From the sequence record OL656110.1: a stretch of 64,000 bases of DNA. The stretch is one strand, 5' to 3'. A model generated the notes under the pieces. The model was not told the DNA's origin. It searched no databases and saw only the letters and a list, made by a program, of their open reading frames with translations. Within the stretch, counting starts at the first letter, position 1, and each line of letters begins with the position of its first letter. Origin of the DNA: Escherichia phage vB_EcoM-RPN242. A program made the translations under genes and the position numbers. Of the stretch, positions 21,866 through 54,781 are shown one piece after another.

Positions 21866-24800
21866 TTATGCCAGAGCAATCAAACGGAAATCTTTGAATG
21901 ACGGCGGTGCTATGCGGTTGCCTCTGACCAGCAGGCGGATCTTCAGACCAACGAAAGGATTGGTGCTGTCTACAGTCTTGTCATACTCATATTCGAAGAA
22001 TGCAGAACCGTCATTGACCAGAGGGGATGTCGGTGTCACAGTTTCCCATGCCACATTATCCATCTCCTGACCTGCGCGCAGCAGTTTAACCTGCACAGTC
22101 ATTGAAGACTGAGAAGGTAGCATCGCGCCGAAGTATTGCTTCAGAGTGGTGCAAGGGTTATCGAATCCGATATCCTTGGTCACATAGCTGAACACATCTT
22201 CAAACGGATCCACACCGTAGGTGTTGAAGATGATAGTGAAATCATCACCGTCGATCATTGGAGCCGTGTAGACATTACTCTCGTTGCGAGTCATGGTTGC
22301 ACGAACCTGGAAGTCGCCCACCTGACGATAGATACCTTCCGTCGGCAGAGACACGTCCGTATCGGATTCGAACTCAACCCAATCAGAGAATGAGTTGGAG
22401 GTCGCATCGCGATAGCGGTATTCCAGTTTCAATACAGATCCTTCTAGGGCTGAATTGGTGACGCTTGCGTAGAACATGTCTACCAAGTAGTTGCCTAGGA
22501 AAGAAGCCGCTTCACCACCAATCTGACCGTCGGAGTCGGCGTTGGAACTCAGAACGAATTTGAACGTCGTGAACGTCGCATCAGTCACAGTGTGTTGAGC
22601 GTTCAGTTGCTCAGGAGTGAAACCGCAACCACCCGTCAACCCAGACAGAGTAACACTTTCACCCGCAGTCAGGCCATGCCCCGGAGCGTACACAGTAACA
22701 GTTGAAGAACCGTTGACACATTTCACGGTGTTCAGACCCAGAGGGCGGATCTTCGGACCGACTTTAGCATCGAAGGTCACGATGTTTGAACCAGCGGAGA
22801 AGTTACAGCGATACACACGGAACTTCATATCGGCAGTCTGGTTTGGAGTCCAGGTCGTACCATTTGAAGATGTGAAGAACACGCCAGTGTACGGCTGTTT
22901 GGCAATGAACTCGTTGGTCAGCAAGTTCTTCTTACCCATCTCTGCGATGTATGCGTTGTAGTCCTGAGTGTTGGCCAAGAGAACAATCGCGAACTCAGTC
23001 TGCGCCTGCAGATACACAGGATAATCAAACTTGAACATCGTCGGCACAGAAGAGTCTGTGGAGATGGAAACTTCTGATGGATTCAGAGTCTTACGAGTGA
23101 CGACAGTCGTCGCTGGCAGACCATTGCTCATCTCACGGATTTCCAGAGTGATCGGGATATCACGGGACTTGGTAGAGAAGAACACTTCAATACCTTCGAT
23201 GTATTCGCCGCCGATATTGGTGGCAACCATGAAGGACTGGGCGATAGGATCTTTCCACTTCGCGACTTCAACCGTCTCTGTTTTGTTTTCCGTAGACTTG
23301 GTCGCAGTGTATCCCAGGACGCGAGTGTTGACATAAGTCTTCTGGATGCCCTGTTTCTTGCCGAAGGACTTATGAACAGCCTCGGCATTGGTCAGGGTAT
23401 CATCAGCAGACTTGCTATCCACAGGACTGTCAGTCAGACGGAAGACGTTGTCGCCCGTGTTAAACTTGATAGTCTCGTTCTGAGGAACCGCAAACACACC
23501 TTTGATGTTACCGTTGGCATCAGTGTTCAACGCACCACCCAGTACACCACCGTTTGGGGTACAGTACGCGCTCACATCACGCCCAGAGAAGAACGGATAC
23601 ACACGAGTAAATGGACGCAGGCCTGTGGCTTCGAAGTTGATGTTCGTTTTGCGCATGTATGGGATAACCTGCGTTTCAACGATCTGCTCGCCAGTCAGGG
23701 TAGTGGTCGTCTTGTCGGTGTACGTGTACGTGGTGACGTCACGGGTAGACACAGTCGTGCGGTAGCGATAGCCCCACCATACACCACCTGCACCATGCGG
23801 TTCCCACACACGCTCAGACACAGACACAGTACGCCATGTGCCATACACAGAACCTTCTTTGATCGCACCACGGGTGTTGATCGTTTCGTTGACCACACGT
23901 GGGGTGACATAGTAGTTCTCAAACCAGTAATCAGTAGTTGGGTTCAGCTTCAAGAAACCTTCCCAGTTGAACACCGCATACGGGTTCACGTTGATGGTCG
24001 TGGTTGCATAGTCCTGGCGGACAGAGATCTCACGGGTGTAGTTGCATACAACCATGCCATCCTGAACGTTGTTCCAACCGACTGGCGTCAGGTCAATCGC
24101 GTTCTGCTGAACAAACGGGCGTAGGCGACCATTGTCAGTGTCGATTGAACCCACCCAGTCTGCAGACAAATCGTCGATCAGACGGAAGTCTTTGAACGGG
24201 TCTGCTGCGATACCGTTCTTGAAGCGCGGGTTGCCAGTAATTGGATCGAACACCTGTTGTGACATCGCCGAGGATTCCAGCTGAGACAGTGAGGTGTAAT
24301 ATTCGACATTGGAGATACGGGTCTCCAGTTTACCGATATCGCGCATCGTGTAGCGGCGGTTGTCGATAGTACGAATCTGGATGTCGTCAATGTTGGCCGT
24401 GTATGGTGGGATCATCAATTCATACAGGCGCATGCCGTTGTCTGGGATCGCAGGGGAAGCCAGGTTGTTGGAACTCACACCACGAGCAACGTTGAACACG
24501 CCGTTGTCTGCCAGATACACAGCATCAATACGAGGCAGATAGTACTCTGCATCTAGGATGATCGCGGTGTTCGGGCGAACCATGTCCGTGTCAGACGCTC
24601 CGCTGGTGATCTTGGGACGGAAGTCCAGACTGTCGGCCAACCCATACACAGTACCAGAACTGGATGAAACATAGTTCGGGATGTCTGGGTAGTTGATGGA
24701 CGAATAGGAGTCCGCTGTGAAGAAATCACCAGAGCTGTGAGCGAAATACTGATACACCACCGTGAACGTCCCTGAAATGGCTCCTGTGGACGATATGAGG

Positions 24801-39282: not shown

Positions 39283-40137
39283 TTAACTCCTTGAACTTTC
39301 TAGGAATACAGTAAACCCAGCAGGATGGAAATGCTGACGGAAGACGCGATCAAACACACCTTCAAAATCAGATACGTTGCCAGGAACTCTTATCACATAC
39401 GTGAATTCATCATAGTAGTAATCGTCACGCATTCCTGTCGCGCCGTCACATTCAAAGTTGTCATCCAGGCCACCAATTGCTTCCTTGGGATAATACACAC
39501 TCACTGGGCAACCAAAGTAAATCCAGAAGAACAATTCAATCGCTTTCTTCGTCCCGCGAATGCGATAAATGTGTTTAAGTAACTTCAACCAGCGTACATG
39601 GTCCAGTGTCCGGCGTTCAGTTCCCTCGACATACACAGAGAGTGTGTCTCCGTCTGAAGTCACCAAACTGTCCGAACCAACTGGCACAAACTTCCCGAAC
39701 TCCAGGAAGGACTTATCAACCGTTCTCTGGAATCCAAAATCAGCATACCAATCGTCGATGCGTTCGTTCTTGTCTTCCATTGAGATTAATGCTCGACCGT
39801 CCACGTCCAGCAAATCTTCGAAGTCTAGCGCCATCATGTTCTCAAACGTGCGCGTCAGGAACTTGTCTTCCAAGAAGTCTTTGGCCTCAGTACCTGGCGT
39901 CTTGCGCTTCTTGATGTCAATCAACTGCTCAATAGGAGACTGATCCGTATTTGGATTCACCCAACCACCAGTGTCTGCCAGATACGCCAAGATCTCCTCT
40001 TCGGTGAATCCCTGCTGGCGATACAACCAGTTGAAGAACGTATCCATAAACTCGATGAATACTGGGAATTCATTCTGGTAAAACAATGGGGTTTCATATT
40101 TCACCCCATTGTGCCCGTTATTAAGATCTTTGGACAT
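39283..40137 (-). CDS. baseplate-associated protein
   Basis: 284 aa; start overlaps the upstream gene by 17 nt, suggesting translational coupling; synteny only. Confidence 0.45.
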   Translation of the reverse strand: MSKDLNNGHNGVKYETPLFYQNEFPVFIEFMDTFFNWLYRQQGFTEEEILAYLADTGGWVNPNTDQSPIEQLIDIKKRKTPGTEAKDFLEDKFLTRTFENMMALDFEDLLDVDGRALISMEDKNERIDDWYADFGFQRTVDKSFLEFGKFVPVGSDSLVTSDGDTLSVYVEGTERRTLDHVRWLKLLKHIYRIRGTKKAIELFFWIYFGCPVSVYYPKEAIGGLDDNFECDGATGMRDDYYYDEFTYVIRVPGNVSDFEGVFDRVFRQHFHPAGFTVFLESSRS

Positions 40138-41899
40138 AACGCACCTCCGGCTCCACAGTTACAGCACCGATGCGGAGCACCTGATTCTGTGTGGCCTGAA
40201 TGTTCTGGTCAAGACCGTCTGGAGACACAATTATTGTCACACCCTCAGTGTTGTAGTTGGATACTATGATACGCTGGAGTTCAACAACGCCAGTCACATA
40301 ATCAACCGTCCCAACAGCTTGTACCAGATATTCCTTGGTCGTGTCTGTTGTACTCACCTTGTACATATTCAGGACACCACTGACGTCGCGTATGTAGTAA
40401 GTGAATTCGACCTCGGCCGGAAGCGGCTTAAACCCACTGATACGCACAGAACCAGACGCAATCGAGCGCCCAAACTCGAATGTGAAGCTGTCCAGTACCC
40501 CATAGTCTGGCTTGAAATGGCGCTTATACTTCACAGAAGTGATGTTTGACACTATCGATCTGTCTATGTCGGTGATGGCCGACTGTAACTGCTCTTTATC
40601 GAACAGTTCGTCGAATCCTTCTAGGTTCCCCAAGCCCCAGTTGACAACACCGTTCTTCACGACTGTCTTCAACTGCTCTTCGGTATAGGACGTGGAAGTC
40701 GGATCCCAGAACACGCGGGTGGTGACATCAACATAAGTCAGTTCAGCGTCGACAATCTTGGGTGTGATCGTGCCCACATTGTACTTGTCTAACGTCGCCA
40801 CGATATCTGCCTTCTCAGCGTCCGAGAGCGCCTCACCAACAGAAGGTATCACAGCAATGTAAACGTATCCGGAGTCGGGCGGAGAGAGCGTGTCGCCGCC
40901 ATATGCTTTGGCGCGGGAGACGTTGGAGAACAGACGCTCGGTCAACATAGCATAATCGACTTCGGCTACCGCCGCACCCTCAGCCTGATAAGCCAGCGGA
41001 GCAAGGCGCTTGATGTCCTCAATGCTCTCTGGGTCCGCACCGCCGGAAGAACGTTCTGACACCAGCTCAACATCTACAAGGTTGAATCCCCCGATGGAAG
41101 ACGCGGAGGACAAGGCAGTGATGTCATTGCCGTCTGCACCAGCTGTCTCCAGATACTGGAGGTACACGACGTTCCCGTCTTCTACTCGCTTACAGATATA
41201 CCCATCACCGAATTCGAACGTGTACATCCCGTCCAACCCCAGCTCAACGAAGTAGAGTTGCGCATACTGGCTCAAATCGAACGGGCTGACATATCGTGAA
41301 AAGGTAGACAGCACGTCAGATGTCTCAGATTCCTGCACCTGCACCACCATATGGTCGATGTCCACGGAAGAAGATGGGATCACATAGGTGGAGATCGCGC
41401 TACCTTCCACATCATAGGACTTGTACAGCCAGTTACCCTGTATGAGTTTGATGTTCTCGAACTTGTAAGAGCCGTCTACAAGAGAGGCGCTCACAGGTTG
41501 GTCAACCGTGAAGTTATAGGATTTGCCATCCTTCACCCCAATGAACATCGCGCGGCGATCCATTACAATCGTGTCTGGAGCCGTGCTGGCGTCATATGGA
41601 GTGACTGTGACGTTTGCGTACAGGTACGCGGCCTGGTAGTTGTGAGGGGTGTAAGATAAGAACCCCGCCGCCAGACCGACATTAGAACGCTGTTGAGCAG
41701 AGTGAAGATGGCTTTCGCCATTCAGCATGTTCTGCATGAACCCGATAGAGTTGGCATCCGAGGCCAAGATACGCACGATTGCACTGAGACCAGAACCTTC
41801 AAAGTCATAATCCTTGAAAGTTGGATCAGCTTTCATGCGCTTCTTGATAAGATACTCGAAAGCCCTGACATCGAGTGAAGGGACTGTTTGCGTGGCCAT
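40121..41899 (-). CDS. baseplate wedge protein (gp6-like)
   Basis: About 592 aa from ATG 41899 (track start 41950 is TTG); first gene of the late module. Confidence 0.55.
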   Translation of the reverse strand: MATQTVPSLDVRAFEYLIKKRMKADPTFKDYDFEGSGLSAIVRILASDANSIGFMQNMLNGESHLHSAQQRSNVGLAAGFLSYTPHNYQAAYLYANVTVTPYDASTAPDTIVMDRRAMFIGVKDGKSYNFTVDQPVSASLVDGSYKFENIKLIQGNWLYKSYDVEGSAISTYVIPSSSVDIDHMVVQVQESETSDVLSTFSRYVSPFDLSQYAQLYFVELGLDGMYTFEFGDGYICKRVEDGNVVYLQYLETAGADGNDITALSSASSIGGFNLVDVELVSERSSGGADPESIEDIKRLAPLAYQAEGAAVAEVDYAMLTERLFSNVSRAKAYGGDTLSPPDSGYVYIAVIPSVGEALSDAEKADIVATLDKYNVGTITPKIVDAELTYVDVTTRVFWDPTSTSYTEEQLKTVVKNGVVNWGLGNLEGFDELFDKEQLQSAITDIDRSIVSNITSVKYKRHFKPDYGVLDSFTFEFGRSIASGSVRISGFKPLPAEVEFTYYIRDVSGVLNMYKVSTTDTTKEYLVQAVGTVDYVTGVVELQRIIVSNYNTEGVTIIVSPDGLDQNIQATQNQVLRIGAVTVEPEVRYVQRS

Positions 41900-41935
41900 G
41901 ATAATCTCCATCACCTGAGTTTGAATATGGTGTTG

Positions 41936-41946
41936 AAGATATTTAG
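41936..41946 (-). promoter_or_regulatory. late promoter variant CTAAATATCTTC
   Basis: About 40 nt upstream of ATG 41899. Confidence 0.5.
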
Positions 41947-42265
41947 CCAACGGGAATCAAAACGGCTCGCGCGCGTTTAATTTATTCGAATATAACTCGC
42001 GAGGGGGCTGACGCCCTCGCTCGTAACACCGCCCTGTGCGGGCAGCACCATTCCACAGCCATGGAGGCTGCTTCTCGTTGTTCGTTGACACTCACAACTC
42101 GAAGGGCACTGCGTTAGGATACAGTTTCTTGATGTTGTAGAAAAGTAGTTTTTACCTATTAATAATCACTGTCATTATTTTATTGGTCATTCCTGTGTTT
42201 ATATTCAATAAACATACTCCCAATATAATAACGGAGACATTTAATCAATCCAGTGAGGCTCCGGA

Positions 42266-42835
42266 ATGCACATTAACACAGCAATCATGAAACACATTAT
42301 TCCTTTGTTAGCAAAATACGAAGGGGAACGCGCCACGAATATCCCTTTTGAAACAATCACCGATGAAGTGAAACGCCTGACAGGTAAAAGTATCAATTTC
42401 CGTCGCGTTATTGAATCTGCGTTAGAGTTGGCCCGTTCTGATTTACGAAATCCAACATTTTCATTTAATATTGACATAACTTCTTCACTTCGACAAGAAT
42501 TGGAAGAATCATCACAAGCACGGCGCAATCGCTTCCGTCATTTATATGTTCGTAACGAATTCTCTGAAGGTCGTGTTGGTATGAAACTGGAGTCTATTCG
42601 TTCTGACATTTGCTTCACTGTCAACTACGTTTTAGAGCCAGAAAGTGGGCGCATTTATTTTGGCGCGATTATCGGTTTCTATGGGAACTCTATTAATGGT
42701 TGGGCTGAACGCGTTGGATTAAAAGAAACCCAGAACACTCATTCCACACCTTCTACCCATTATATGACGCATGAAGCTGCTGGTGAATATGTTTACATTC
42801 TGCGTCGTATTGTGAAGTTAGAAGTGTTAAAATAA
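42266..42835 (+). CDS. hypothetical protein, 189 aa
   Basis: First plus-strand gene after the divergent region; GTGAGG upstream. Confidence 0.55.
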   Translation: MHINTAIMKHIIPLLAKYEGERATNIPFETITDEVKRLTGKSINFRRVIESALELARSDLRNPTFSFNIDITSSLRQELEESSQARRNRFRHLYVRNEFSEGRVGMKLESIRSDICFTVNYVLEPESGRIYFGAIIGFYGNSINGWAERVGLKETQNTHSTPSTHYMTHEAAGEYVYILRRIVKLEVLK

Positions 42836-42892
42836 CGCTTTATTCAATAAATAATTGCAGTAAAGTTAGTTGCATGGAAGGGAGGGAACACT

Positions 42893-43039
42893 ATGTTTTA
42901 CATGATGTTACTCCTCATCCTCCTGATCGGGATTACCTTTACTCTCCTGGGTCTACCCGATCAGTCCGGTAAACAGTCGCCCACTTCGGCGCATCCGGTT
43001 TTGTGTGAAGGTTCGTCCGCACTGCTGTGGGCAGTGTAG
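42893..43039 (+). CDS. small hydrophobic membrane protein, 48 aa
   Basis: Strong ribosome-binding site GGAAGGGAGGG; MFYMMLLLILLIGITFTLLGLP... Below the track length cut-off. Confidence 0.4.
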   Translation: MFYMMLLLILLIGITFTLLGLPDQSGKQSPTSAHPVLCEGSSALLWAV

Positions 43040-44864
43040 CTCAAAGAGGAGAGGACTTTTCAAATTAGCTGGGCTGCAGTAAAGTATTAAGCGTGAGGCG
43101 AACAACGCATCGAGTTAGGCATCTAAAGCCGACCTCGCTAATCCCAGTCTCAGGGGCATGCGTGAATAGAGGCGTGATATCCACCTTGCATGGTGTCAGT
43201 GGACGCACTTGACCGTCGGAGAACGAAACTCCCTGTTGTAGCGTGATTAGCTCAGAATCAGAGAGCACCCCGTTGGCAAGTCGACACCAACACAAGGGGA
43301 GGTCGGGGGCGCTAATCTCCATCACGCCGACAACATTATGAGTCTTCCATAGAGGGTTCATAATGTTGCGTCAAAGGGCAACAAGGTTCCTGTTGGTTGA
43401 ATTAACTTGATTCATAGTTCCTACTGATCTTCCCGGATTCGAAGGATCACCAACAGGCGAGGCCGGATGCGTAAGTTCCGGTAAATCGATGGTAACGCCC
43501 TCGCCAACAAAAATAAAAGGTTTTATCAATAACGGGTTACAAAGTATAGTTAACCCACTGAAGCGAAAAGCTGTTTGGGCATTAGACAAACACTTCGATG
43601 TGAACCCAGGACATGGTGTCTTGTGCTCAAACAGGTTTTCGTTTTCGTTGTGCGTGACTTTGCGGGTTTTTAGAAACTGACCAAGCAAATAACTGCTAAT
43701 GATTCCGAAGTTCTGATGGCGGCGTAACAGCCTATAAGTCAGTGAGGTCTTCCGATTCCTCATCACCAAATTCGGCGCACTAAAATAGACGGGAGGGTGT
43801 GATTAATAATCTCCCGTCGACAATGCCGTTATATCTGACTGTCCAAAGGGGATAAGCTCCTGAGTAAGCAGAGGTGGGTTGCCTAAGTCAGATGGGATGT
43901 AAGGTCAGCGCTGGCCAAGCATTTGGGTTCGACTCCTAAAAACGGCTCCACATCTTTGAGGATATTCTCACGAGTATCTTGAAAGATGTGAGCGAAGTCT
44001 TGCCATCAGCCCTGATCCCTGGCAGGTGAAGGGCACACAAATCGAAGTGTCTTGACAATTTATCTTAAACCCAAAGGTTGATCTAGAAATTGGGCGGCCA
44101 ATCCGGTGGACGATAACAGCATATTGGGCCATACTGTTGAGTCAGGGCACTTCGATTTGTGAACTTGAGAGAGCATTGGGTGAAATAGACCATGCCTTGC
44201 AGATTGCGATGTCTACACATTCCGGACACTGGTGGACACCAAGAAGAACTCAGTAGCAGACGAGCCATCAGGGTTAGCTACCCGGCGCGGCGAGGACTGG
44301 GAGGCCGAACTAAGGGGAAACCCGAGACAGGCGTAGTATTCTCAAGTTCACAAAATGAAGAGCATTAAAGAACTCGCAAAGGACCTGAAATTGGTATCCC
44401 TGGCTTGTACCACTGAGTGTTCTTCATCTTTGGGTGATTCTATGTTGCCGGGCTATCAACCCATGCTTGCTGGAGCAACCAGCGGCTCTGAATCAACCAG
44501 CCAGCCTCGTTTGGTCCGAGCGTTAGAGGACAAGTTGCTTCTACATGGAAGTTGCGAGTTGCGACATTGGTTGCAACTTTGATGGCTCTGGATTTTATAA
44601 ACCATGTCTATGGGTGACGCGGGATCTTTAGTACCAGAGCTATCAAAGTTGTGTCCAACCCGATCTTACAAGCCCGTATCCCGGTCTGGTTAAGACTTGT
44701 AAGTGGAAAGCCCTGGAAAAATAAACGCCTGTGGCGAGGCTATGGTGCAAGCCAAAGACTCACAGAAGCGCATGCCGTGAGGCAGCACAAAGAGGCATGC
44801 ATGAACTGATCATGCACAAACGGGATAAAGGGTTGACAGTCCTTGGTCGGACACACAATAATTT

Positions 44865-44941
44865 GGTCCTGTAGCTCAGTGGTAAGTAGCAGTGAACTCA
44901 TAATTCATTGGTCGTTGGTTCAAATCCAACCAGGATCACCA
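44865..44941 (+). tRNA. tRNA with CAU anticodon (Met or Ile2)
   Basis: Hand-folded cloverleaf: acceptor GGTCCTG/CAGGATC, anticodon loop CTCATAA, T-arm GTTGG-TTCAAAT-CCAAC, encoded CCA. Confidence 0.75.
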
Positions 44942-45193
44942 TGTTAAGGGGTGTGAAACATGACACTCCGACAAACACAGTAAGCGTTGCAGTCAGCTGT
45001 GTATAAAATGGGGTGACTCCGCATCGGAAACGATGCCCCAACTTCCAGAAATGGTCGGGCGCAAAGCCTGTAAAGTTCCAGGAGATCGAACCAGAAGGCA
45101 CTGGTCGCCAGTTAACCAATCGGCGCTGAGAAGCGCGGGGAGTTGGGCTACGGCAGATCAAATGCTCAATCGGGTGTGAAGCCCGTCCAAATT

Positions 45194-45282
45194 GGAAGGT
45201 TGCCCGAGATGTTTAAGGGACTCGACTGCTAATCGAGTGGGGCTTTTAGCCCCCGAAGGTTCGAATCCTTCACCTTCCGCCA
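45194..45282 (+). tRNA. tRNA-Ser (GCU) with long variable arm
   Basis: Acceptor GGAAGGT/ACCTTCC, anticodon stem CTCGA/TCGAG with loop CTGCTAA, variable arm GGGGCTTTTAGCCCC, T-arm GAAGG-TTCGAAT-CCTTC, CCA. Confidence 0.75.
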
Positions 45283-45498
45283 AATTACGGGCGTGACTTC
45301 CTGAAGAGTTAGAAGATGTGCATGTCGACTCTCTCGTAATCGGGTGTTTAGGAAGTTAAGAAAATCGCGGCGAGGATAGTGAAATGCAAATAGCTTTCTC
45401 TACGTCGACGACTTCAGGTTCGACTCCTGACGCGCTCTCCCATAGGGTAGTACCAGTGCAAGCGTGTAGTCTTTCAACCCATCCCATCGATGTGGTGT

Positions 45499-45528
45499 AG
45501 CCGGATATCCTATCCGGCTTTCTTTTTA
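45499..45528 (+). terminator. rho-independent terminator after the tRNA region
   Basis: Hairpin GCCGGATATCCTATCCGGC followed by TTTCTTTTTA. Confidence 0.7.
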
Positions 45529-45651
45529 TCCCTGTCTTATTATCTTCTTATCGACCCAAGCATGTCCTCCTTTATCATAGTTTGTTCAATGATACAAAGG
45601 GGGTTTAAAATTTAACCGTTAACCCCCTATCATAGATTTGAGGATACACCA

Positions 45652-46320
45652 ATGCGTAATGTTTCTATCTGGGAATTGAACGAAGTGATTTCCCATGACA
45701 CCCCTCCAATTGTCAGACTCTTCCGATACAAGGGTGTCAAGCGTACTCTGAATGAGTTCCTGTCGCCTGTTTACGTCTACCGTGATGGCGGGTTCTTCCG
45801 CCGCGATAAAAACATCCCGAACCTTGGTATGACGTTTGATTTGAGTATCAAAGGCCAGGTTGTATTGATGGGTTATGATAGCCTGGAACAATCTGAGAAA
45901 GGCCAGGGCGCTCCACTTATGGTCTTCGGTTCGTTTGAACAAGCCGTGCACTGGCTGATCAGAAACGGATATGATTTCTATGGCGAAGAAAGCGCCAATT
46001 GGCGTCGTCGCAAGGTCAAGTCTGTTGATTTCTACGCAGAGCGCAAGAAATACCTGGATATCGCTCATCAGTATGAGCAGTCTAAGAAATCCGTTCTAAT
46101 CAAACCATGCGTTACGGTCGGTGAAGAAGTGGGTGTCGTGGATAATTCCGATTTGAATCAGGCAATTAAATCTTTGAATCCAACTCCTCCGGTCAGTCGT
46201 GTTCTGAATGATCAGGGTGCTCCGGCCAAGCATGACAGTTCTATTCCGGTCCCCCAATCGGAGAAACCAGCGGAGCACAAATCGTTCTTCCGTCGCTTGC
46301 TGGACTTCCTGACCAAGTAA
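45652..46320 (+). CDS. hypothetical protein, 222 aa
   Basis: ATG with GAGGA upstream. Confidence 0.55.
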   Translation: MRNVSIWELNEVISHDTPPIVRLFRYKGVKRTLNEFLSPVYVYRDGGFFRRDKNIPNLGMTFDLSIKGQVVLMGYDSLEQSEKGQGAPLMVFGSFEQAVHWLIRNGYDFYGEESANWRRRKVKSVDFYAERKKYLDIAHQYEQSKKSVLIKPCVTVGEEVGVVDNSDLNQAIKSLNPTPPVSRVLNDQGAPAKHDSSIPVPQSEKPAEHKSFFRRLLDFLTK

Positions 46321-46389
46321 GACGAGATTCTCCTTTTCTATACTCCTGTAGATACGCTATGATAAGCCAATGTCTACAGGAGAAATAGA

Positions 46390-47664
46390 ATGAACAAATT
46401 CGCTGCACAACCCCTCGCTCCATATATCCCGTTCCGCACGTATATCCCGTTCCACACGTTAGGGAAAGGTCCATATAAAACGATTTTTGATGTCCTCTCT
46501 CTTCATCGTGAACATATTCACTGGGAAGACTACCTCTACAAACACACTCCGTGTGAACTCGTCGCCAACCCCGAAACTAACCAGCAGGTCTGGTTCAAGC
46601 GTGAAGATTACTTCGCGCCGCTATCTTGTTATATGAATGGCAAGCAGGGCATCAATGGCAGTAAGTTGCGCCAGGCCATCTGGTTGATGGTTGAGCACCT
46701 GAAGACCGGAGGCTCCCCTGACATCATCCATGGTACTGTCGTTGGTAGTCCGCAGTCCCCTATGGCGACGGCAGTCTCTCGGCACTTCGGCGGCAAGACA
46801 ACCACTGTACTCGGAGCGACCAAACCCACCACCTGTATGAACCACGACATGGTGGCAATGTCAGCCTGGTTTGGTAGTGAGTTCAACTTCGTCGGCTCGG
46901 GTTACAACAGCACGATCCAGCCGCGCTGTAAGAAGTTGATCGAACAACAGAATCCAAAGGCGTATTATCTGGAATATGGTATCACCCTCGACCACACAGC
47001 GCATTCTCCTGAGCGCATCGCTGGCTTCCATATGCTGGGTGGCGAGCAGGTTGCCAACATCCCTGACCATATTACCGATCTGATTATCCCAGCCGGATCC
47101 TGCAACTCTTGCACAAGCATCCTGACCGGGCTGGCAATGCATCCGAAGCCTAATCTGAAGCGTGTGTATCTGATTGGCATCGGTCCTAACCGCCTTGACT
47201 TTATCGAGAGCCGTCTGCGCATCATCGGCAAACATGCCAATCTGCCGCACATTGTCGACTTCACCCGTCGCTATCACGACAACCCAGACTATGTACACGG
47301 CAAGAAGGAGCTTCAGCATGCCTCTAAGAGCGTTTCGCTGGCTGGCCTCCTAAGTGGTATCAGGCAGAAGGAAGAGCCAGAGGTCGTGCTTCCTCGCTTT
47401 GAGGTACACCATTGGGATCTTCATACCACTAATTGGGTTCGTTACAATGATCTGATGGAATATCAGTGGGGTGATATTGAGTTGCATCCTCGCTATGAAG
47501 GCAAGGTCATGACCTGGGTTCAACAACACAAGCCCGAGTTGCTCAACGAGAACACCCTGTTCTGGATTGTGGGTAGCAAGCCATACATCGAGCCGATGAA
47601 GGCAGCATGCCCTGAGCTGGCTATCCCTGAAACAGTTCCTGTAAACGACTTCACCCCTTCCTGA
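46390..47664 (+). CDS. putative PLP-dependent enzyme (fold-type II, ACC-deaminase/D-cysteine-desulfhydrase-like)
   Basis: 424 aa; GINGSKLRQ resembles the GGNKxRK PLP-lysine loop and GSPQSP the Gly-rich phosphate loop; AGGAG upstream. Confidence 0.45.
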   Translation: MNKFAAQPLAPYIPFRTYIPFHTLGKGPYKTIFDVLSLHREHIHWEDYLYKHTPCELVANPETNQQVWFKREDYFAPLSCYMNGKQGINGSKLRQAIWLMVEHLKTGGSPDIIHGTVVGSPQSPMATAVSRHFGGKTTTVLGATKPTTCMNHDMVAMSAWFGSEFNFVGSGYNSTIQPRCKKLIEQQNPKAYYLEYGITLDHTAHSPERIAGFHMLGGEQVANIPDHITDLIIPAGSCNSCTSILTGLAMHPKPNLKRVYLIGIGPNRLDFIESRLRIIGKHANLPHIVDFTRRYHDNPDYVHGKKELQHASKSVSLAGLLSGIRQKEEPEVVLPRFEVHHWDLHTTNWVRYNDLMEYQWGDIELHPRYEGKVMTWVQQHKPELLNENTLFWIVGSKPYIEPMKAACPELAIPETVPVNDFTPS

Positions 47665-50598: not shown

Positions 50599-52016
50599 AT
50601 GACCGTCTTCTATACGAACGTTGCCCGCCGGGGCAATGACCTGTTGATTCGAATCGCAGATGACATGGGTAATCGCCGTCTGTTGAAAAAGAAATTCGAA
50701 CCCACTCTCTATTTACCCACGGCTGATTATTCAAATGTTGAAAAGGTCGGCCTGCTCAACGAACCCCTGGTCTCCAAGAAGTTCCCTGACATGCGCACTG
50801 CTGACAACTACCTTGAAGAGTACAAGGAAGTCCAGGGTGCAGCCATTTACGGGCAGACCGATTATGCATACCAGTTCATCGCCCATAGCTTTCCTGGAAA
50901 GATTGAGCCGGATTACTCCAACATCCATATTGCTAACCTCGATATCGAAGTGTTCTCCGCCGGGTGGAAAGATGGAAAGATGACCAAAGGTCCATTCCCT
51001 CACCCAACCATTGAGCAGCAGACGTTCAAAGGGAATGAGGCGCGCATTCGCCGCTTCCATCAGCAGGTACTGGCCAACCATGACTTCATCCGTGAGCACT
51101 TTCCCAGTTCCTTTATCAGCAACAACGTCACTGATCAGTTCCCTATCATTGACAGCAACGGTAAGATCACCCAAGACATGAATGCGGCGTTCCCCATTAC
51201 CCTGATCCAGCTTCAGGACATGGCGACCAATAAGTTCATGGTGTGGGGTATGCCGTGCGCGAAGGATCGTGCGAAGTTCAGATACGATCCAGAAGACGCG
51301 GAGATCGGTGGACTTGAGGTGGAGTACAAGGAGTTTGTCACCGAGCAGGATCTGCTGCGATCTTTCCTTGACTTCTGGTCACAGCGTCAGTTCGACGGCT
51401 GGACAGGCTGGAACATTGAGACGTTTGATAGCCCTTATCTTGTTGAGCGCATGAATCAGGTTCTGGGTGAGGCTGAAACGTCGCGCCTCAGTCCTTGGGG
51501 TATCATTAAGAAGCGTATCATTCGCGATAAGAAGGGCGATATCACGACGTATCAGTTCGTGGGTTGCCCTATGCTCGATTATATGCAGATCTACAAGAAA
51601 CACACGTACACCACCCGTGAACGCTACTCTCTTGACTGGATTGCGTATTGTGAGCTGGGTGAGAAGAAGATGGACTACAGTGAGAGCAAGTCGCTCTTTG
51701 ATCTGTACTTCAACGACTACTGCAAACACACCCGATATGGTATCAAAGACGTTAAGCTGGTATGGCGACTTGAACAGAAGCTGCGCCTGCTCCAGCTGAT
51801 GTTCGTCCTGGCCTACCGCACCAAGTCCAACTATGAGGACGGCCTGGGTACTGTGGCTCCGTGGCTGGCCATGTGCTATTATCGCCTGTATGAGAAGGGG
51901 ATAGTGCCTAAGATCCAGCGTGTATACGATGGTCCGACCGACTTTGAGGGTGCATACGTCATGGATGTGACACCAGGAATCTACTTCTGGGTCTTCTCTG
52001 AGGACTTGAACTCCCT
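50599..52016 (+). CDS. DNA polymerase, family B, exon 1 (N-terminal and exonuclease region up to motif A)
   Basis: N-terminus MTVFYTNVARRGNDLLIRI... resembles T4 gp43; frame ends at ...SEDLNSL, the first half of motif A. Confidence 0.85.
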
Positions 52017-53199
52017 TAAGTTAGCAGCATAGGGGCTTTGGTTGGCGACAACCATCGAATAACTCTCTTAATTGCTGGGAAGTCTCTTTAGAGATAATCA
52101 GCAGCCAAGGTCGGCCACGAAGACCTAAATACTCTGTAACCACGGTGAAGGAGTAAGGTCATGAAGGAAATCAAGAGTCTGTTCTATCGAAATGATTTGG
52201 TAATTGAAGAATCTAAGATAGAAGAATATTTGAAGTTCTGTAAGGAACACAGTTATGATGGTGATGGATACAGTGAACGCCATCATATACTGCCTCAGGC
52301 GCATTATCCTGAGTTCTCTAAAGAAGAATGGAACATTGTAAACCTGTTATATAAAGATCATGTAGAGGCTCATCGCCTGTTGCATGAAGCATTACCAGAA
52401 GATAAATCAGCGTTCTTCGCCTACTTCATGATGAAATCCCATAACGGGGAACTAAGTGAGGAATTGAGAAGAAAGAATGTTGAAATGCTGACGGGAGAGG
52501 GAAATCCTTCGAAGAGGGAAGATGTCAGAAGAAAGATATCCAAATCTAAGAAGGGTGTTAGAAGAGCAGATATGAAGGGTAAGGCTTATTTCGGCGCTGA
52601 TAAAGAAACAGCTGAAAGAATTAAAGCCAATTCCAGTCTTGTTCACAAAGGCACTGTCCCCGTAAGACTCCTGGATGGTAGTGTTATCAAAGTTTCAACG
52701 CAAGACCCGAGATATTTGAGTGGTGAGTTGAAATGTATAATAGGTGCAAAGAAAGGTCAGGTGGGACCAAACACCGACCCAAAAGCGAAGAAGAAATTTA
52801 AAGATTCTTTAGAGAAAAGGAAGGAAATGTTTGCCAGAATGAGTGGGGAAGAAATAACCACTCATTGCTTGACACAACAGGATTTAGGTAAGAAGACTGT
52901 AGAGTGGGGCAAGTTGGCAAGAAACTTCAAACGACTCTTTGGTTACGCTGGGTTAAACCCAGATGATTTCCTTGAAGTAGTGGGTGACAAGGTTCAACGA
53001 CTATCGAAAGCAAGACCGACGACTAAGCGTCTGATCTGAAGCGAGTAGAGTAGGGGCAAGCGCCTCGAAATGGAGAGAATCTCTAGACAGTTCTGGAGAT
53101 TGTGATATAGTCTGGCCTGTATGGTGACATACAGCAGTGTTCGGTAAACTGAATGACGAACACGGGGGATGAAATAGCGAGCATCCCTGAACATAAGCG
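52017..53199 (+). mobile_element. group I intron carrying an HNH homing endonuclease gene
   Basis: R-like element GTTCAACGACTA at 52992-53003 and S-like GATATAGTC at 53104-53112; 5' exon ends in U, intron ends in G; splicing gives DLNSL|YPHIIQQYNLGPETI. Confidence 0.7.
52161..53039 (+). CDS. HNH homing endonuclease (intron-encoded)
   Basis: ERHHILPQ...NIVNLLYKDHVEAHRLLHE is an HNH motif; GGAG upstream; 3' end overlaps the intron core. Confidence 0.8.
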   Translation: MKEIKSLFYRNDLVIEESKIEEYLKFCKEHSYDGDGYSERHHILPQAHYPEFSKEEWNIVNLLYKDHVEAHRLLHEALPEDKSAFFAYFMMKSHNGELSEELRRKNVEMLTGEGNPSKREDVRRKISKSKKGVRRADMKGKAYFGADKETAERIKANSSLVHKGTVPVRLLDGSVIKVSTQDPRYLSGELKCIIGAKKGQVGPNTDPKAKKKFKDSLEKRKEMFARMSGEEITTHCLTQQDLGKKTVEWGKLARNFKRLFGYAGLNPDDFLEVVGDKVQRLSKARPTTKRLI

Positions 53200-54781
53200 A
53201 TATCCACACATCATTCAGCAATACAACCTCGGTCCAGAGACTATCGTTGGCGACAAACACCAGCGCCGCGAGATTATTGAGGCTATGTGTGAAGAGCTGG
53301 CTGCTCAGATGAATAACATGGCAACGCCGATGCACAAACGTCGGTTGATGAAAGCCCTTCACGACAAGCTGTTGCGTGCGGTTGACGAACGCCTGCAGGT
53401 TGTTGATGAGTTGGTTGCCCTGGGTGAGTTCCACTTTGAAACCCTGCGCCGCTACAACGTGTCGTTCACGCCGAACGTTCAATTCTTCAGCAACGAGAAG
53501 ATGTCGTTCCTGTCTGAAATCATGCGTGGTATCTACAGCGACCGTAAAGTAGAGAAGGCCAAGGGTCTGAAGTATGAGCAGTGGGCTGGCTGGTGTAAAG
53601 AGATGTCGAAGGGCGACTTCCATCTTGAGTCTGCCATGAAGTCTCGCTACTATGACCCAGAGTGGTATGAAGAGCACAAGAACATTGATCTTGATGCCCT
53701 GACCGAAGTGATGAAGAAGTGGGAAGACCTGGGCGTCGCTCAAGATACCCTACAGCAAGGTCTGAAGATCTTGATGAACGCAGGTTATGGCGCTATCTCA
53801 AACGTCTGGTTCAAAGAGTACTTCAACCTCAACATTGCCGAAGCCATCACCACATCCGGTCAGCTGATCAACAAGTGGAACAAGCGTTACACTGATGACT
53901 ATCTGAACAAGCTGTGTGGTACAACAGGCCAGGACTTCGTCATCGCAGGGGATACCGACTCCAACTACATCTGTATTGAGCGTCTTGTCAAGCAGTTGTG
54001 GCCTGATGTTACTGACCATCATGCTATGGTTGATAATATCGACCAATGGATCAAAGACAACTACCAGCCGAAGACCAATGAGTGGGCACAGCTTCTGTGT
54101 AACACCATGAACGGATTTGAACAGCGCATGGTGTGGGAGCGTGAGGTCATTGCGTCAGCCGCTGTCTGGCGAGCCAAGAAGATGTATGCCATGGCCGTGT
54201 ACGACAGTGAGGGTATCAAGTATGAGAAGCCGAAGATCAAGTTCAAAGGTCTGGAAGCCCGCAAGTCCACCACGCCGGAATGGTGTCGTGAGCGCCTTGT
54301 CAAGTGCTATGAGAAGATCCTACTCGGCACCGAAGAGGAAGTACAGACGCTCATCTCCCAGTACAAAGAGGAGTATATGAAACTCTCTGTAGACGATATC
54401 GCCAAGGCGTCAGGCGTGTCCGACATAGAGAAGTGTGTGGCTGCTGACGGATCGTTTATATCTGGTGCTCATTTTGCTGCCAAGGCGTGTGTGGGCTACA
54501 ACCGTCTGGTTGAGAAGAACGAAGATCTGGGTCTACCGATGATCGAGTCGGGTGATAAGGTACAGATGGTGTTGTTGAAGCCGGGCAACCCGTTTGGGCA
54601 GAACTACTTTGCATATCCTGAGTTCTTCCCAGAGGAGCTTGGTCTGGGCAAATGGGTGGATTATCAGGCGGCCTTTGAGAAGTCCTTCATTGATCCGATT
54701 CAGTCTATCCTCGACGTGGTCGGCTGGTCACACAAGCGCCGTGTGAACCTTCTTGCCATGATGCAAAAGAAGAAAGGTTGA
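53200..54781 (+). CDS. DNA polymerase, family B, exon 2 (motif A second half, motif C, thumb)
   Basis: Begins ...YPHIIQQYNLGPETI; contains VIAGDTDSNYI (motif C). The track's ATG at 53153 lies inside the intron. Confidence 0.85.

Follow-up and report, generated by a model that had tools for sequence, protein, structure and literature searches.

The window analysed here is a 64,000-nucleotide stretch of Escherichia phage vB_EcoM-RPN242 (OL656110.1), an Ackermannviridae phage; Escherichia phage A221 and the window are 97% identical. The ATG of gp6 at 41899 on the minus strand and the start of a 189-aa ORF at 42266 on the plus strand delimit a 365-base gap, 41900-42265. The phrog_219 gene to its left is annotated as gp6 in the records of relatives. 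The AlphaFold2 model of the 189-aa ORF to its right has a pLDDT of 90, and a structure search gave no significant fold match. The order gp6, gap, phrog_3788 ORF and tRNAs is syntenic family-wide, Vibrio phages included, and the tRNAs at 44865 and 45194 are the sole ARAGORN matches. The plus-strand block is rich in terminator-like hairpins. GC content is 59-62% over 41950-42099 and drops to 25% over 42150-42249. The features of the gap and its two flanking genes are as follows.

40121..41899, minus strand: the late baseplate-wedge gene gp6, from the ORF list and a match to PHROG phrog_219 ('baseplate wedge subunit', E 1e-186).
41899 and 41909-41906, minus strand: the gp6 start signals, ATG and the Shine-Dalgarno sequence GGAG respectively.
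41940..41946, minus strand: CTAAATA, resembling a T4-type late promoter, about 40 nt upstream of the gp6 ATG.
41960..41978, no strand assigned: the CTCGCGCGCG box (41966-41975) with its AAACG/CGTTT flanks, from alignments.
41976..41995, no strand assigned: an AT-rich stretch (10% GC) that separates the box hairpin from the CGCGCG box.
41993..42026, minus strand: the box hairpin, with the conserved box CCTAYTCGCTTCGCTCRTAA in most relatives.
42027..42047, minus strand: hairpin H1, with the core stem GCCC/GGGC at 42031-34 and 42040-43.
42048..42070, minus strand: P1, two overlapping helices (P1a and P1b) that both covary.
42071..42104, minus strand: the P2 rod, from RNAalifold and pair counts.
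42116..42153, minus strand: P_L, a sigma-70-like promoter candidate with a predicted start at about 42110.
42155..42165, no strand assigned: the invariant block CCTATTAATAA, placed by alignment between two divergent promoters.
42204..42229, plus strand: a rightward promoter candidate, with TTCAATAAA at 42204-42212, 11 nt, and TATAAT at 42224-42229.
42266..42835, plus strand: the 189-aa ORF, a PHROG match to phrog_3788.

Two short ORFs inside the gap were rejected as genes. The 44-aa minus-strand ORF with a GTG start (41957-42091) has no PHROG match and is disrupted in other genera by frame-shifting indels, and the 18-codon plus-strand ORF from 42061 has no ATG in Taipeivirus and no stop codon in Agtrevirus. 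In an identity profile, the gap and the 189-aa ORF form a cassette of about 900 bp that is ~95% Kuttervirus-like in an Agtrevirus-like backbone; judged by this profile, segment 41900-42800 of the window has clearly been swapped with a Kuttervirus-like donor. Two allele classes occur within Kuttervirus.

A sequence-only reading had singled out GC-rich inverted repeats in the gap, next to AT-rich sequence and a copy of TTCAATAAA, and all of these are present. The first repeat, GCGAGGG/CCCTCGC, occupies 41999-42005 and 42014-42020 around an 8-nt loop; the second, AAACG/CGTTT, lies at 41960-41964 and 41974-41978, its 5-nt arms surrounding CTCGCGCGCG. Perfect 7-bp hairpins with a 3-10-nt loop appear in 13.6% of shuffles of the gap's 365 bases and average 0.43 per 365 nt over the window, so the palindromes alone are not beyond chance. 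As a functional core, GCGAGGG/CCCTCGC could not be upheld, and it is better described as a lineage-restricted extension of a conserved mini-hairpin box: this lineage and Kuttervirus have an 18-nt insert in place of the 3-nt loop of the box, and the GCGAGGG/CCCTCGC stem arises from it. The stem is missing from the aligned Limestonevirus, Taipeivirus and Yersinia-phage sequences. In the viable laboratory mutant selz_497L, 11 nt of its 5' arm are deleted; since this phage lives without half of the hairpin, the box hairpin copy at the gp6 locus is not essential. AAACG/CGTTT likewise fails as a core, being at chance level with arms that elsewhere are not conserved as an inverted repeat, and it overlaps the conserved CGCGCG box. 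The further proposal that the hairpins are not terminators does stand. A terminator scan flags the 41999-42020 hairpin on the minus strand, where the tail GAGTTATATT is weak, and the gap holds no conserved U-run and no intrinsic terminator (hairpin plus U-run) that is consistent across genera. The palindrome that draws the eye matters least here; what gives the region its significance is that it is conserved and covaries, not that it contains the palindromes first noticed.

On the gp6 side, positions 41900-41947 are nearly invariant across genera in the alignment. CTAAATA is present in 15 copies versus 4.9 expected, 12 of them on the minus strand in the late module, and most of the minus-strand copies lie directly upstream of late-gene starts. 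The gp6 copy has the traits of a T4-type late promoter, namely a TATAAATA-like -10, no -35 and a co-oriented position near late genes, and the LIMEstone1 record has the -10 of a 'putative late promoter' annotated at the matching position. Homologues of gp55, gp33 and gp45 can be recognized from the annotations of the near-identical genome PQ306799.1, which include a late sigma transcription factor, a late promoter transcriptional regulator and a DNA polymerase processivity factor; CBA120 is likewise stated to have late-transcription proteins of the gp55/gp33/gp45 type (PMC3184105). A gp55-type late promoter at CTAAATA would drive gp6 leftward. Farther from gp6, the CGCGCG core of CTCGCGCGCG, of which this is the sole exact copy in the window, is kept in all genera in two alignments, Serratia and Erwinia phages included. 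The CTCGCGCG box was rejected as a fixed-distance promoter element, as its spacing to the nearest TAnnnT and to CTAAATA shifts by at least 10 nt between genera.

On the other side of the gap, the rightward promoter candidate has a predicted start at about 42236, and the Shine-Dalgarno sequence GAGG of the 189-aa ORF follows at 42255-42258. The TTCAATAAA copy noticed earlier turns out to belong to an enriched, phage-specific, promoter-like motif. Exact copies of TTCAATAAA number seven in the window (0.6 expected), and the wider pattern TTCAAT-N13-15-TAnnAT is found 14 times per genome (1.1 expected), mostly in intergenic positions and oriented with the downstream gene; the N14 spacing from TTCAAT to TAnnAT is present in five of the seven exact copies and in most of the 14 wider matches. 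The position of the TTCAATAAA promoter is conserved in most genera compared, and the LIMEstone1 record has the -10 of a 'putative promoter' annotated at this site. The TTCAATAAA-N11-TATAAT promoter would drive the 189-aa ORF and the tRNA/early block rightward, with its box about 30 bp before the start, a geometry like that of T4 middle promoters. In T4, the MotA box lies near -30, 11-13 bp from a sigma-70 -10; here TTCAATAAA ends 11 nt upstream of a TAnnAT -10, and there is no canonical -35. However, TTCAATAAA is unrelated to the MotA box (a/t)(a/t)TGCTT(t/c)A, and homologues of MotA and AsiA have been reported to be absent from ViI-like phages (PMC3184105).

At other sites in the genome, a terminator-like stem-loop coincides with the TTCAAT-type promoter and holds its -10 in the loop, and one such motif (42843) marks the right border of the exchanged cassette. 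These copies resemble the promoter-early stem-loop (PeSL) cassettes that T4-type phages are said to carry (reportedly from Arbiol et al., 2010), whereas the promoter copy of the gap itself is without a strong stem-loop and the hairpin cluster is not a PeSL. Upstream of the rightward promoter, positions 42166-42200, which follow CCTATTAATAA, are a non-conserved spacer whose length changes in steps of about 10 nt between genera, giving distances of 28, 37-38 or 48 nt from CCTATTAATAA to TTCAATAA depending on the genus.

Between the late and rightward promoters lies a run of short hairpins, 41993-42104, which is nearly invariant among at least seven lineages compared. The core, 42017-42165, is 87-89% identical across genera versus 55-80% in the flanking coding DNA. 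Searches of IMG/VR, a metagenome scan and a protein database supplied few new lineages for comparison; the two divergent Logan contigs that were used also keep the core. Single-stranded linker sequences in the cluster are as invariant as the stems. An nhmmer search of the genome finds modules of the hairpin unit at three loci only, the gaps upstream of gp6 (locus A), gp5 (locus B) and the gp45 clamp gene (locus C); loci B and C span about 360 bp each and are each conserved in about 270 phage records.

The cluster can be described from its late-promoter end. In most relatives, the minus strand of the box reads UUAC.GA.GC-GAA-GC.GA.GUAG and contains GCGAAGC. Its pyrimidine/purine position covaries (C..G or T..A), and an anchored list of boxes indicates that the loop has been expanded three times independently. 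H1 has its stem lengthened to 7-10 bp by G.U pairs on the minus strand, where its fold energy is -12.9 kcal/mol versus -7.2 kcal/mol on the plus strand, and two of its four core pairs show compensatory changes from C-G to U-A, at loci A and B alike. In P1, the helix P1a (CCAT/ATGG, 42048-51 with 42061-64) has one compensatory pair and P1b (CAGCC/GGCTG, 42056-60 with 42066-70) has two, and 100% of cells are paired in both. The two helices would either coexist as a pseudoknot on the minus strand or represent alternative folds. As an H-type pseudoknot, P1 would have minus-strand loops of 1 nt and 4 nt, lengths that seem to fit the loop rules for this type, a 1-nt loop over a 4-bp stem being borderline. 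The leader of T4 gene 32 carries a pseudoknot upstream of the ssb gene, and P1a/P1b share its H-type layout, its 1-nt first loop and the A/U-rich sequence that follows on the minus strand. Unlike that leader, P1 does not precede an ssb gene, has no sequence similarity to it, and suggests a pseudoknot through two overlapping covarying helices only.

P2 is a rod that reads CUUC.GA.GUUGU.GA.GU-GUCA-AC.GA.ACAAC.GA.GAAG on the minus strand, with internal loops that are all tandem G.A on this strand and U.C on the other. Compensatory changes occur in its CUUC/GAAG stem and in an inner pair, and 100% of cells pair on the minus strand, including four U.G cells whose plus-strand counterparts are C x A. 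Several P2 variants keep their pairing only through G.T wobbles, which in one lineage make up two of five pairs.

Pair counts for H1 and P1 were made on 13 distinct sequences from loci A and B. They show 99.4% of cells paired and compensatory double changes in 5 of 13 pairs, and the compensation is strictly from Watson-Crick to Watson-Crick pairs. The covariation score is 0.329 versus 0.109 in shuffles, none of 500 shuffles reaches 0.329, and the covariation is significant against slid controls as well. With no structure imposed, RNAalifold recovers P2, P1b and H1 from 11 minus-strand sequences, with six compensatory pairs. A long-range pairing of GCC(C/T) with GGGC at 42104-42107, proposed by RNAalifold on the plus strand, was discarded; it is unsupported at locus B, and the local H1 covaries instead. 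Over the cluster, reading the plus strand instead of the minus strand would turn five G.U cells into C x A, module energies are lower on the minus strand, and the z-score of the whole region is -2.63 on the minus strand versus -0.83 on the plus strand. The cluster folds best on the minus strand.

No known RNA family accounts for these modules. Rfam 15, run on both strands of 41000-46500, matched two tRNAs only, the best score in the gap being anti-hemB at E 9.6, and in ten related loci (among them locus B, locus C and four locus A copies from other genera) it gave no match to the clusters; matches to RsmY and the rnk leader in the gaps of related loci lie downstream of the cluster and below gathering. 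With ARAGORN and a permissive Rfam search both negative in the gap, a tRNA or known RNA there was rejected. The hairpin-rich element has no described counterpart.

Directly upstream of the cluster lies P_L, composed of an A-tract (42153-42149), the -35 TTTTCT (42144-42139), a 17-nt spacer (42138-42122) and the -10 TATCCT (42121-42116). The layout of A-tract, TTTTC(T/A), 17 nt and TA(T/C)NNT is present at locus A in every genus, Serratia and Erwinia phages included, and in four locus B and four locus C sequences; at loci A and B the spacer is constant in length (17 nt) and variable in sequence. In the 152-kb genome, the composite pattern has no match outside the three loci, a test that is circular, as the pattern was derived from them. 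The -35 is weak, with 3-4 of 6 matches, and a canonical sigma-70 scan of the genome gives scattered matches of 10-11/12, many of them intragenic and none in the core. The -10 can be read on the plus strand too, owing to its palindromic form TATNNTA/TANNATA. The A/T element at 42138-42156, which has G.T wobbles on the plus strand only, was reinterpreted as the -35/A-tract region; a reading as a plus-strand hairpin is the alternative. The candidate promoters of the gap presumably fire.

The three loci are spaced 44, 42 and 66 kb apart around the genome (45.7, 89.7 and 131.9 kb in the coordinates of PQ306799), and at each an AT-rich stretch follows the box. Locus B has a canonical terminator upstream of its cluster. 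The gp45 locus has a copy of P2, the interior of which reads GCGTTAGC on the minus strand, along with a predicted P_L start at or inside the P2 5' arm and 19-nt tandem repeats (iterons). Promoter, hairpin modules, box and AT-rich stretch thus appear to constitute a paralogous unit in three copies per genome. Sequestration of the ribosome-binding sites of gp6, gp5 and gp45, of the kind known for T4 lysozyme and soc, was rejected as a role, the duplex energies between leader and initiation region being no better than those of shuffles at all three loci.

With promoter-like signals on both strands and a conserved non-coding element, the gap bears out the earlier suggestion of a regulatory hub and, as far as its motifs and conservation indicate, is the main conserved control region at the switch in transcription direction, with promoter-like signals pointing both ways. 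The observations are the motifs and their enrichment, the conservation, the compensatory changes, the minus-strand preference and the paralogous loci. The reading that we favour, giving it somewhat less than an even chance, is that of a control region with three outward promoters and a leftward structured non-coding transcript, paralogous at the three loci. P_L would start this transcript near 42110. Over its first ~115 nt it would fold successively into P2 (the rod with tandem G.A loops), P1 (a pseudoknot or switch), H1 and the box hairpin, and the AT-rich stretch would come next.

We infer that what folds is RNA and not single-stranded DNA. Those hairpins whose compensation is strictly Watson-Crick and which carry G.A pairs would fold equally well as single-stranded DNA, and an unlikely explanation is that DNA hairpins on an exposed minus strand mark a site for a primase or helicase loader, with no need for RNA. 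Exposure would occur on the lagging-strand template or the displaced strand of an open complex, the very stable mini-hairpins of GCGAAGC type and the G.A-rich rods would resist coating by SSB, and the model would be the complementary-strand origins of phages G4 and St-1 or the ssiA signal of RSF1010. Mini-hairpin DNA of the type GCGNAGC/GCGNNAGC is reported at sites of replication and transcription initiation, including the complementary-strand origins of G4, St-1 and alpha3, RSF1010 ssiA and the promoters of the N4 virion RNA polymerase (PMC13037366). In most relatives the box is GCGAAGC or GCGTAGC on the minus strand, the P2 interior of locus C is the St-1/alpha3 mini-hairpin, the motif is one of several hairpins lined up on a single strand of an initiation-type region, and the three dispersed loci adjoin AT-rich DNA. 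However, in the window's own locus A and in Kuttervirus the GNA loop of GCGAAGC has been destroyed by the 18-nt insert, other variants have non-GNA loops (AAC, TTT, TTCA), and the hairpins sit in longer G.A-rich rods. Those P2 variants that pair only through G.T wobbles would be weak in DNA and good in RNA, and a conserved promoter-like architecture lies directly upstream of the cluster. Ackermannviridae also differ from these systems in having double-stranded genomes and their own T4-type primase, and in having no N4-type virion RNA polymerase. We know of no T4-type primase that needs hairpin signals.

If the molecule is RNA, it could instead be transcribed from the other strand. We consider it improbable that the cluster is the 5' leader of a rightward early transcript that starts just upstream of the box and runs into the 189-aa ORF, acting in cis as an antitermination or stabilizing RNA in the manner of HK022 put RNA or a 5' stabilizer hairpin. 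In several genera, loci A and C do have the -10-like sequences TATATT/TAATAT at 8-13 nt before the box, and a plus-strand reading of the TAnnAT at 42115-42120 is possible as well. Early transcription must also cross the many terminator-like hairpins of the plus-strand block, and antitermination has been proposed for ViI-like phages, which are without MotA and AsiA (PMC3184105). Against this, the G.A and G.U of the minus strand correspond to U.C/C.U loops and C x A mismatches on the plus strand, whose modules are weaker and whose z-score is only -0.83. A start upstream of the box has no conserved -35, and the RNA made from it at locus B would enter late genes in antisense orientation.

The invariant linkers raise the question of whether the conserved blocks are duplex DNA sites for a repressor, an activator or an IHF/HU-like bender, with the hairpins as palindromic operators through which phage or host proteins would coordinate the two divergent promoters. 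The ~10-bp steps in the distance between CCTATTAATAA and TTCAATAA suggest face-of-helix constraints, P2 at locus C immediately adjoins the -10 hexamer, a typical operator position, and the phage encodes histone-like DNA-binding proteins. However, the asymmetric loops, the bulges and the box loop insertions from 3 to 18 nt would not be tolerated by dimeric operators, and the compensatory changes keep pairing rather than half-site identity, which leaves this explanation with a small chance.

A set of insulators or terminators against stray leftward transcription into gp6, gp5 and gp45 before the late promoters are active is very improbable: all three clusters do lie upstream of the proximal promoter of a leftward gene, and a simple scan calls the GCGAGGG hairpin terminator-like on the minus strand, but no hairpin is followed by a conserved U-run, locus B already has its canonical terminator upstream of the cluster, and in T4, gp45 is not a late-only gene. 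Just as little credit can be given to ordinary promoter DNA with incidental hairpins and conservation from recent cassette recombination, for although 41900-42800 was exchanged with a Kuttervirus-like donor and one 7-bp palindrome could arise by chance, genera outside the exchange and the two Logan contigs keep the core as well, the covariation is significant against shuffles and slid controls, and the modules recur at two further loci.

For the favoured reading, a control region with a leftward structured transcript, the elements would act in cis, each at its own locus. Their most likely function, put forward tentatively and by analogy, is that the transcripts prime or open DNA for origin-dependent replication, like T4 ori(34) and ori(uvsY) or the RNA II primer of ColE1. 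Hints of an origin are the AT-rich stretch, the spaced loci, the GC-skew minimum, the tandem repeats of locus C and the reported occurrence of GCGNAGC mini-hairpins where phage replication and transcription begin (PMC13037366). The global cumulative GC-skew minimum lies about 330 bp from locus A, an extreme that the switch in transcription direction explains equally well. No consistent terminator follows the box, and the product could be a discrete small RNA or a long leader. It is possible, if somewhat doubtful, that the element serves instead as a structured leader on early or middle transcripts reading into gp6, gp5 and gp45.

T4 ori(uvsY) and ori(34) work without RNA structure, a MotA-dependent middle promoter being followed at once by a DNA unwinding element; the promoter of ori(34) lies upstream of a late structural gene, and T4 origins are several, redundant and individually dispensable. 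The loci described here would be alike in placing a non-late promoter upstream of a gene, with a non-coding transcript and easily unwound AT-rich DNA after it, and in having several redundant copies per genome, each dispensable by itself. They differ in that the candidate promoter is sigma-70-like with an A-tract, and that ~115 nt of conserved hairpins stand between its predicted start and the AT-rich stretch at 41976-41995. ColE1 RNA II is a structured primer RNA of ~550 nt with an antisense partner, RNA I. The element would share with it a promoter-driven, structured non-coding RNA whose folding governs the downstream DNA, and the phage encodes an RNase H; unlike RNA II, the element spans ~115-170 nt, has no sequence or structure similarity to it and has no antisense RNA I partner.

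A bolder form of the replication proposal, which we regard as rather doubtful, is that of three roughly evenly spaced origins of a kind not described for T4-like phages, at which a host-type promoter makes a structured primer RNA. This RNA, made up of the G.A-rich rod, the pseudoknot and the GCGAAGC-type hairpin, would open or prime the adjacent AT-rich DNA. The scheme would join the principle of T4 ori(34) to a structured primer of the ColE1 kind, with the divergence point serving as the principal origin.

Ackermannviridae (ViI, CBA120, the LIMEstone phages, Det7 and relatives) are common in biocontrol, diagnostics and engineering, yet neither their transcription signals nor their replication origins have been defined in the time since the first genome papers. 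Kutter et al. (2011) explicitly called the sequence of the late promoter, the early promoters and the divergence-point promoters unknown, and the literature searched yielded no transcript-start, RNA-seq or origin study of the family. Candidates can now be offered: the late consensus CTAAATA, the TTCAATAA-N-TAnnAT class with its activator-dependent geometry, and a sigma-70-like type tied to the hairpin element. If it is an origin or a regulatory RNA, the element would represent a new family absent from Rfam and would provide an engineering handle, with safe insertion sites, copy control and payload timing.

The authors of the selz study consider packaging probably T4-like, i.e. headful (PMC9825161), and a packaging signal in the gap, a further earlier suggestion, finds no support. 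Several GenBank records begin near the gp6 gap, which probably reflects convention.

The DNA around the gap (2.5 kb) shares 97% identity with Escherichia phage A221 and has matches in 272 phage records, almost all from Ackermannviridae. The order of gp6 (leftward), a gap of 350-420 bp, a 189-aa ORF (rightward) and small ORFs with tRNAs is shared by Kuttervirus, Agtrevirus, Limestonevirus, Taipeivirus, one Yersinia phage, Miltonvirus and Nezavisimistyvirus, and Vibrio Ackermannviridae keep this gene order with a gap of about 800-900 bp. Judged by sequence comparison, the real feature is a conserved control region with three putative promoters, together with a structured, apparently non-coding minus-strand element present three times per genome. 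As far as we could find, this feature has no earlier description.

Features of the gap and its borders (window coordinates)
ATG at 41899, minus strand: start of gp6, a T4 gp6-like baseplate wedge gene (phrog_219, E 1e-186)
41900-42265: the non-coding gap (locus A)
41940-41946, minus strand: CTAAATA, late promoter-like, some 40 nt ahead of the gp6 start codon
41960-41964 and 41974-41978: inverted repeat AAACG/CGTTT
41993-42026: box hairpin, with the 7-bp inverted repeat GCGAGGG/CCCTCGC (41999-42005 and 42014-42020, 8-nt loop)
42027-42047: hairpin H1
42048-42070: P1, consisting of P1a and P1b
42071-42104: P2 rod
42116-42153, minus strand: P_L, a leftward sigma-70-like promoter candidate (A-tract 42153 to 42149; TTTTCT 42144 to 42139; 17-nt spacer; TATCCT 42121 to 42116)
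42204-42229, rightward: promoter candidate TTCAATAAA-N11-TATAAT, kept in most genera compared
Right of the gap, plus strand: 189-aa ORF of no known function (phrog_3788)

The sequence-only reading had pointed to two GC-rich inverted repeats beside AT-rich sequence and to a copy of TTCAATAAA, and had proposed a regulatory hub or a replication or packaging signal. Both repeats are present, the left half of the gap is 59-62% GC and the right half 25%, and TTCAATAAA (at 42204 in the gap) occurs seven times in the window against 0.6 expected. The palindromes alone are unremarkable, since 13.6% of shuffled versions of the region contain a perfect 7-bp hairpin (window mean 0.43 per 365 nt), and the case rests on comparison across phages. 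They are the least conserved part of the region, and an alignment of 11 phages shows no GCGAGGG hairpin in the Limestonevirus, Taipeivirus and Yersinia-phage sequences. The idea of a regulatory hub is supported; the packaging signal found no support.

In that alignment, which spans five lineages, a core at about 42017-42165 is nearly invariant, with 87-89% identity versus 55-80% in the adjacent coding DNA. This conservation is independent of a cassette exchange that is evident in the identity profile. The window is about 95% identical to Agtrevirus ChubbyThor across gp6 as far as about 41880; between 41900 and about 42800 it is about 95% identical to Kuttervirus EP75 and just 55-75% to ChubbyThor; beyond that point it matches both alike. 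The switch implies that the gap and the 189-aa ORF were exchanged as a cassette. On either side of the swapped segment, in gp6 and from about 42800 onward, the sequence is 90-100% ChubbyThor-like. One breakpoint of this mosaic (41900-42850) lies in the invariant block of the gp6 start and late promoter, and the other near a second TTCAATAAA at 42843. Two allele classes of the 189-aa ORF exist within Kuttervirus.

For H1-P1, 13 distinct sequences from locus A and locus B (a paralogous gap upstream of gp5) have 99.4% of cells in standard pairs and compensatory double changes in 5 of the 13 pairs. The covariation score is 0.329 versus 0.109 in shuffles, none of 500 of which reached it, and pairing collapses to 25-44% in controls with shifted partner columns. 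Covariation is also seen in P2 and its extension. Two divergent Logan contigs contribute additional pair types, and in one of them the inside of P2 copies the box exactly and the outer stem is changed to GTTT/AAAC. The evidence favors the minus strand (the sense strand for gp6) as the folding strand. On this strand the internal loops of the P2 rod and box are all tandem G.A (U.C on the plus strand), and five cells are G.U that would be C x A on the other. Minus-strand folding energies are lower than plus-strand energies for H1 (-12.9 versus -7.2 kcal/mol), P1b (-9.8 versus -7.8) and P2 (-12.3 versus -7.4), as is the whole-region z-score (-2.63 versus -0.83), and RNAalifold recovered P2, P1b and H1 from minus-strand sequences with no structure imposed. 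P1a and P1b overlap and both covary; on the minus strand their layout is that of an H-type pseudoknot (5 bp, 1-nt loop, 4 bp, 4-nt loop), but they may instead be two competing folds. An Rfam search returned no family matching loci A, B or C (the last a paralogous gap upstream of the gp45 clamp gene).

The box, CCTAYTCGCTTCGCTCRTAA, is the most widely conserved piece, and its range extends even to Vibrio phages. Its minus-strand reading, UUAC.GA.GC-GAA-GC.GA.GUAG, is a small hairpin that has tandem G.A pairs around a GAA loop and shows covariation between its Y and R positions. At least three independent enlargements of the loop have occurred; in the lineage of the window and Kuttervirus, the 3-nt loop is replaced by an 18-nt insert, and the stem, made longer by it, is the GCGAGGG/CCCTCGC palindrome. 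The genome-reduced, serially passaged Kuttervirus mutant selz_497L (PMC9825161) has lost 11 nt, comprising the 5' arm of the palindrome and half of the box, and still grows, so the palindrome is dispensable, at least at this one of the three loci. This deletion (ACTCGCGAGGG, L074 1595-1610, MZ375358.1) occurs in the smallest of the reduced selz mutants and is absent from MZ375357.1, another reduced selz-derived record. The minus-strand box contains GCGAAGC or GCGTAGC, and one P2 variant contains GCGTTAGC; motifs of these types are described as "extraordinarily stable mini-hairpin DNA" at phage G4/St-1 origins, RSF1010 ssiA and N4 promoters (PMC13037366). Five unrelated, GC-rich viral contigs from IMG/VR (L056/L059, L058, L063, L065 and L066) carry exact copies of the 18-nt box CCTAYTCGCTTCGCTCRT as well; about ten matches would be expected by chance for such a pattern, but all five preserve the Y/R pairing as C..G or T..A.

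The conservation pattern of P_L looks like that of a sigma-70-type promoter: the spacer is constant in length and variable in sequence between loci A and B, and about six variable bases follow TATCCT before the invariant structured part begins. The pattern A-tract/TTTTC(T/A)/17 nt/TA(T/C)NNT is present at locus A in every genus, including Serratia and Erwinia phages, and at loci B and C. It has no further occurrence in the 152-kb genome of the near-identical phage PQ306799.1, a circular test in that the pattern was derived from those loci. The weak points of P_L are a poor -35, a palindromic -10 that is readable on the opposite strand too and, at locus C, a predicted start lying at the base of P2.

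Of the outward-facing candidates, CTAAATA occurs 15 times versus 4.9 expected, with 12 copies within the minus-strand late module, mostly just 5' of gene starts. It fits a candidate T4-type late promoter; the LIMEstone1 record annotates a putative late -10 at the equivalent place before gp6, and gp55, gp33 and gp45 homologues are annotated in PQ306799.1. The rightward candidate belongs to a class, TTCAAT-N13-15-TAnnAT, with 14 genomic copies versus 1.1 expected, mostly intergenic and co-oriented with the downstream gene. As in T4 MotA-dependent middle promoters, the upstream box of the gap's copy ends 11 nt before the -10, but the box sequence is unrelated. Several other copies have the -10 inside the loop of a terminator-like hairpin, an arrangement that recalls the PeSL cassettes of T4-type phages. 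Copies with a 14-nt spacer (window 4516 on the minus strand, 42843, 49679, 54782, 59868 and 62648, and elsewhere in the genome) often lie right behind a stop codon, with the hexamer often in the loop of a GC-rich hairpin, e.g. ggggaTATAATtcccc. The distance from the invariant block CCTATTAATAA to the TTCAATAA promoter varies by increments of about 10 nt, a hint that helical register is maintained between the two divergent promoters. For ViI-like phages, the late promoter sequence and early promoters were reported as unidentified (Kutter et al. 2011), and no transcript mapping published since then was found in the literature searched.

BLAST and nhmmer searches across the remaining genome place core parts at exactly two other sites, both non-coding gaps of about 360 bp and each kept in about 270 phage records. 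Locus B, upstream of the gp5 baseplate hub/lysozyme gene, lies between the preceding operon's terminator and the gp5 late promoter and has the box, H1 and P1. Locus C, a divergent gap adjoining gp45, has the box and P2; before it come 19-nt tandem repeats that look iteron-like and lie beside replication genes. These repeats (PQ306799.1 89600-89670; L051 39600-39670), just left of the window start, comprise 2.5 copies of CTTTATTAAAGATAATAA; other genera have 1.5 copies. Immediately upstream of the repeats are a CGCG box and the hairpin AAATGCC-TTCG-GGCATTT. The homologous Vibrio gap (L022 1528-2430, L023 1580-2375; 800-900 bp) contains a pair of direct repeats, each about 200 bp, along with long AT-rich runs of TAATAATA. 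The box TTCGCTTCGCT is presented there by hairpins between GGGG and CCCC arms, and a CGCGCGA(A/G)G box is reversed in orientation relative to enteric phages.

The three loci share only the candidate P_L, the box hairpin and, following the box, an AT-rich stretch. Given so few common parts, downstream genes (gp6, gp5 and gp45) without shared function, and spacings of 44, 42 and 66 kb on the circular map, they resemble three copies of an autonomous element more than they resemble gene-specific regulation. The nearest precedents are T4 ori(34) and ori(uvsY), where a transcript from a non-late promoter primes replication at adjoining, easily unwound DNA; for a structured primer, ColE1 RNA II provides the precedent. 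This autonomous look, these precedents and the locus C repeats lead us to favor, tentatively, P_L transcripts that would serve as origin-type primers at all three loci, and a replication origin at the gap is a live possibility. In PQ306799.1 the gap is the main point of transcription divergence (leftward arm about 108 kb, rightward arm about 45 kb), and the V-shaped cumulative GC skew reaches its global minimum at 131,543, which is about 330 bp away from the gap, and peaks at 23,605, adjoining the convergence point of both arms; this pattern is compatible with an origin and fits transcription-linked skew equally well.

A cis-acting leader ranks second, slightly less probable than the primer. 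Because no consistent terminator follows the box 3' across the compared sequences, the P_L product may be either a discrete RNA or a long leader crossing the late promoter into gp6. One particular leader model, in which the ribosome-binding site would be sequestered, was rejected after testing. A pure single-stranded-DNA signal, a plus-strand leader, duplex operators and an insulator all rank below the primer and the cis-acting leader.

Elsewhere in the window, ARAGORN detects only tRNA-Met and tRNA-Ser at 44865-45282, where the PQ306799.1 annotation has five tRNAs (Met, Trp, Asn, Tyr and Ser). Near-consensus sigma-70 promoters are few in the genome, and one of them, TTGACA-18-AATAAT (11/12 matches), lies directly 5' of tRNA-Met (window 44833 region; PQ306799.1 134806). 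A permuted tmRNA gives a weak, sub-threshold match at 43577-43727 (E 0.057). Finally, the DNA polymerase region at 50599-54781 is apparently broken into two ORFs (477 and 542 aa) separated by a third of 292 aa (52161-53039), versus a single 3-kb gene in PQ306799.1, which suggests an intron or homing-endonuclease insertion of the kind described for LIMEstone1.
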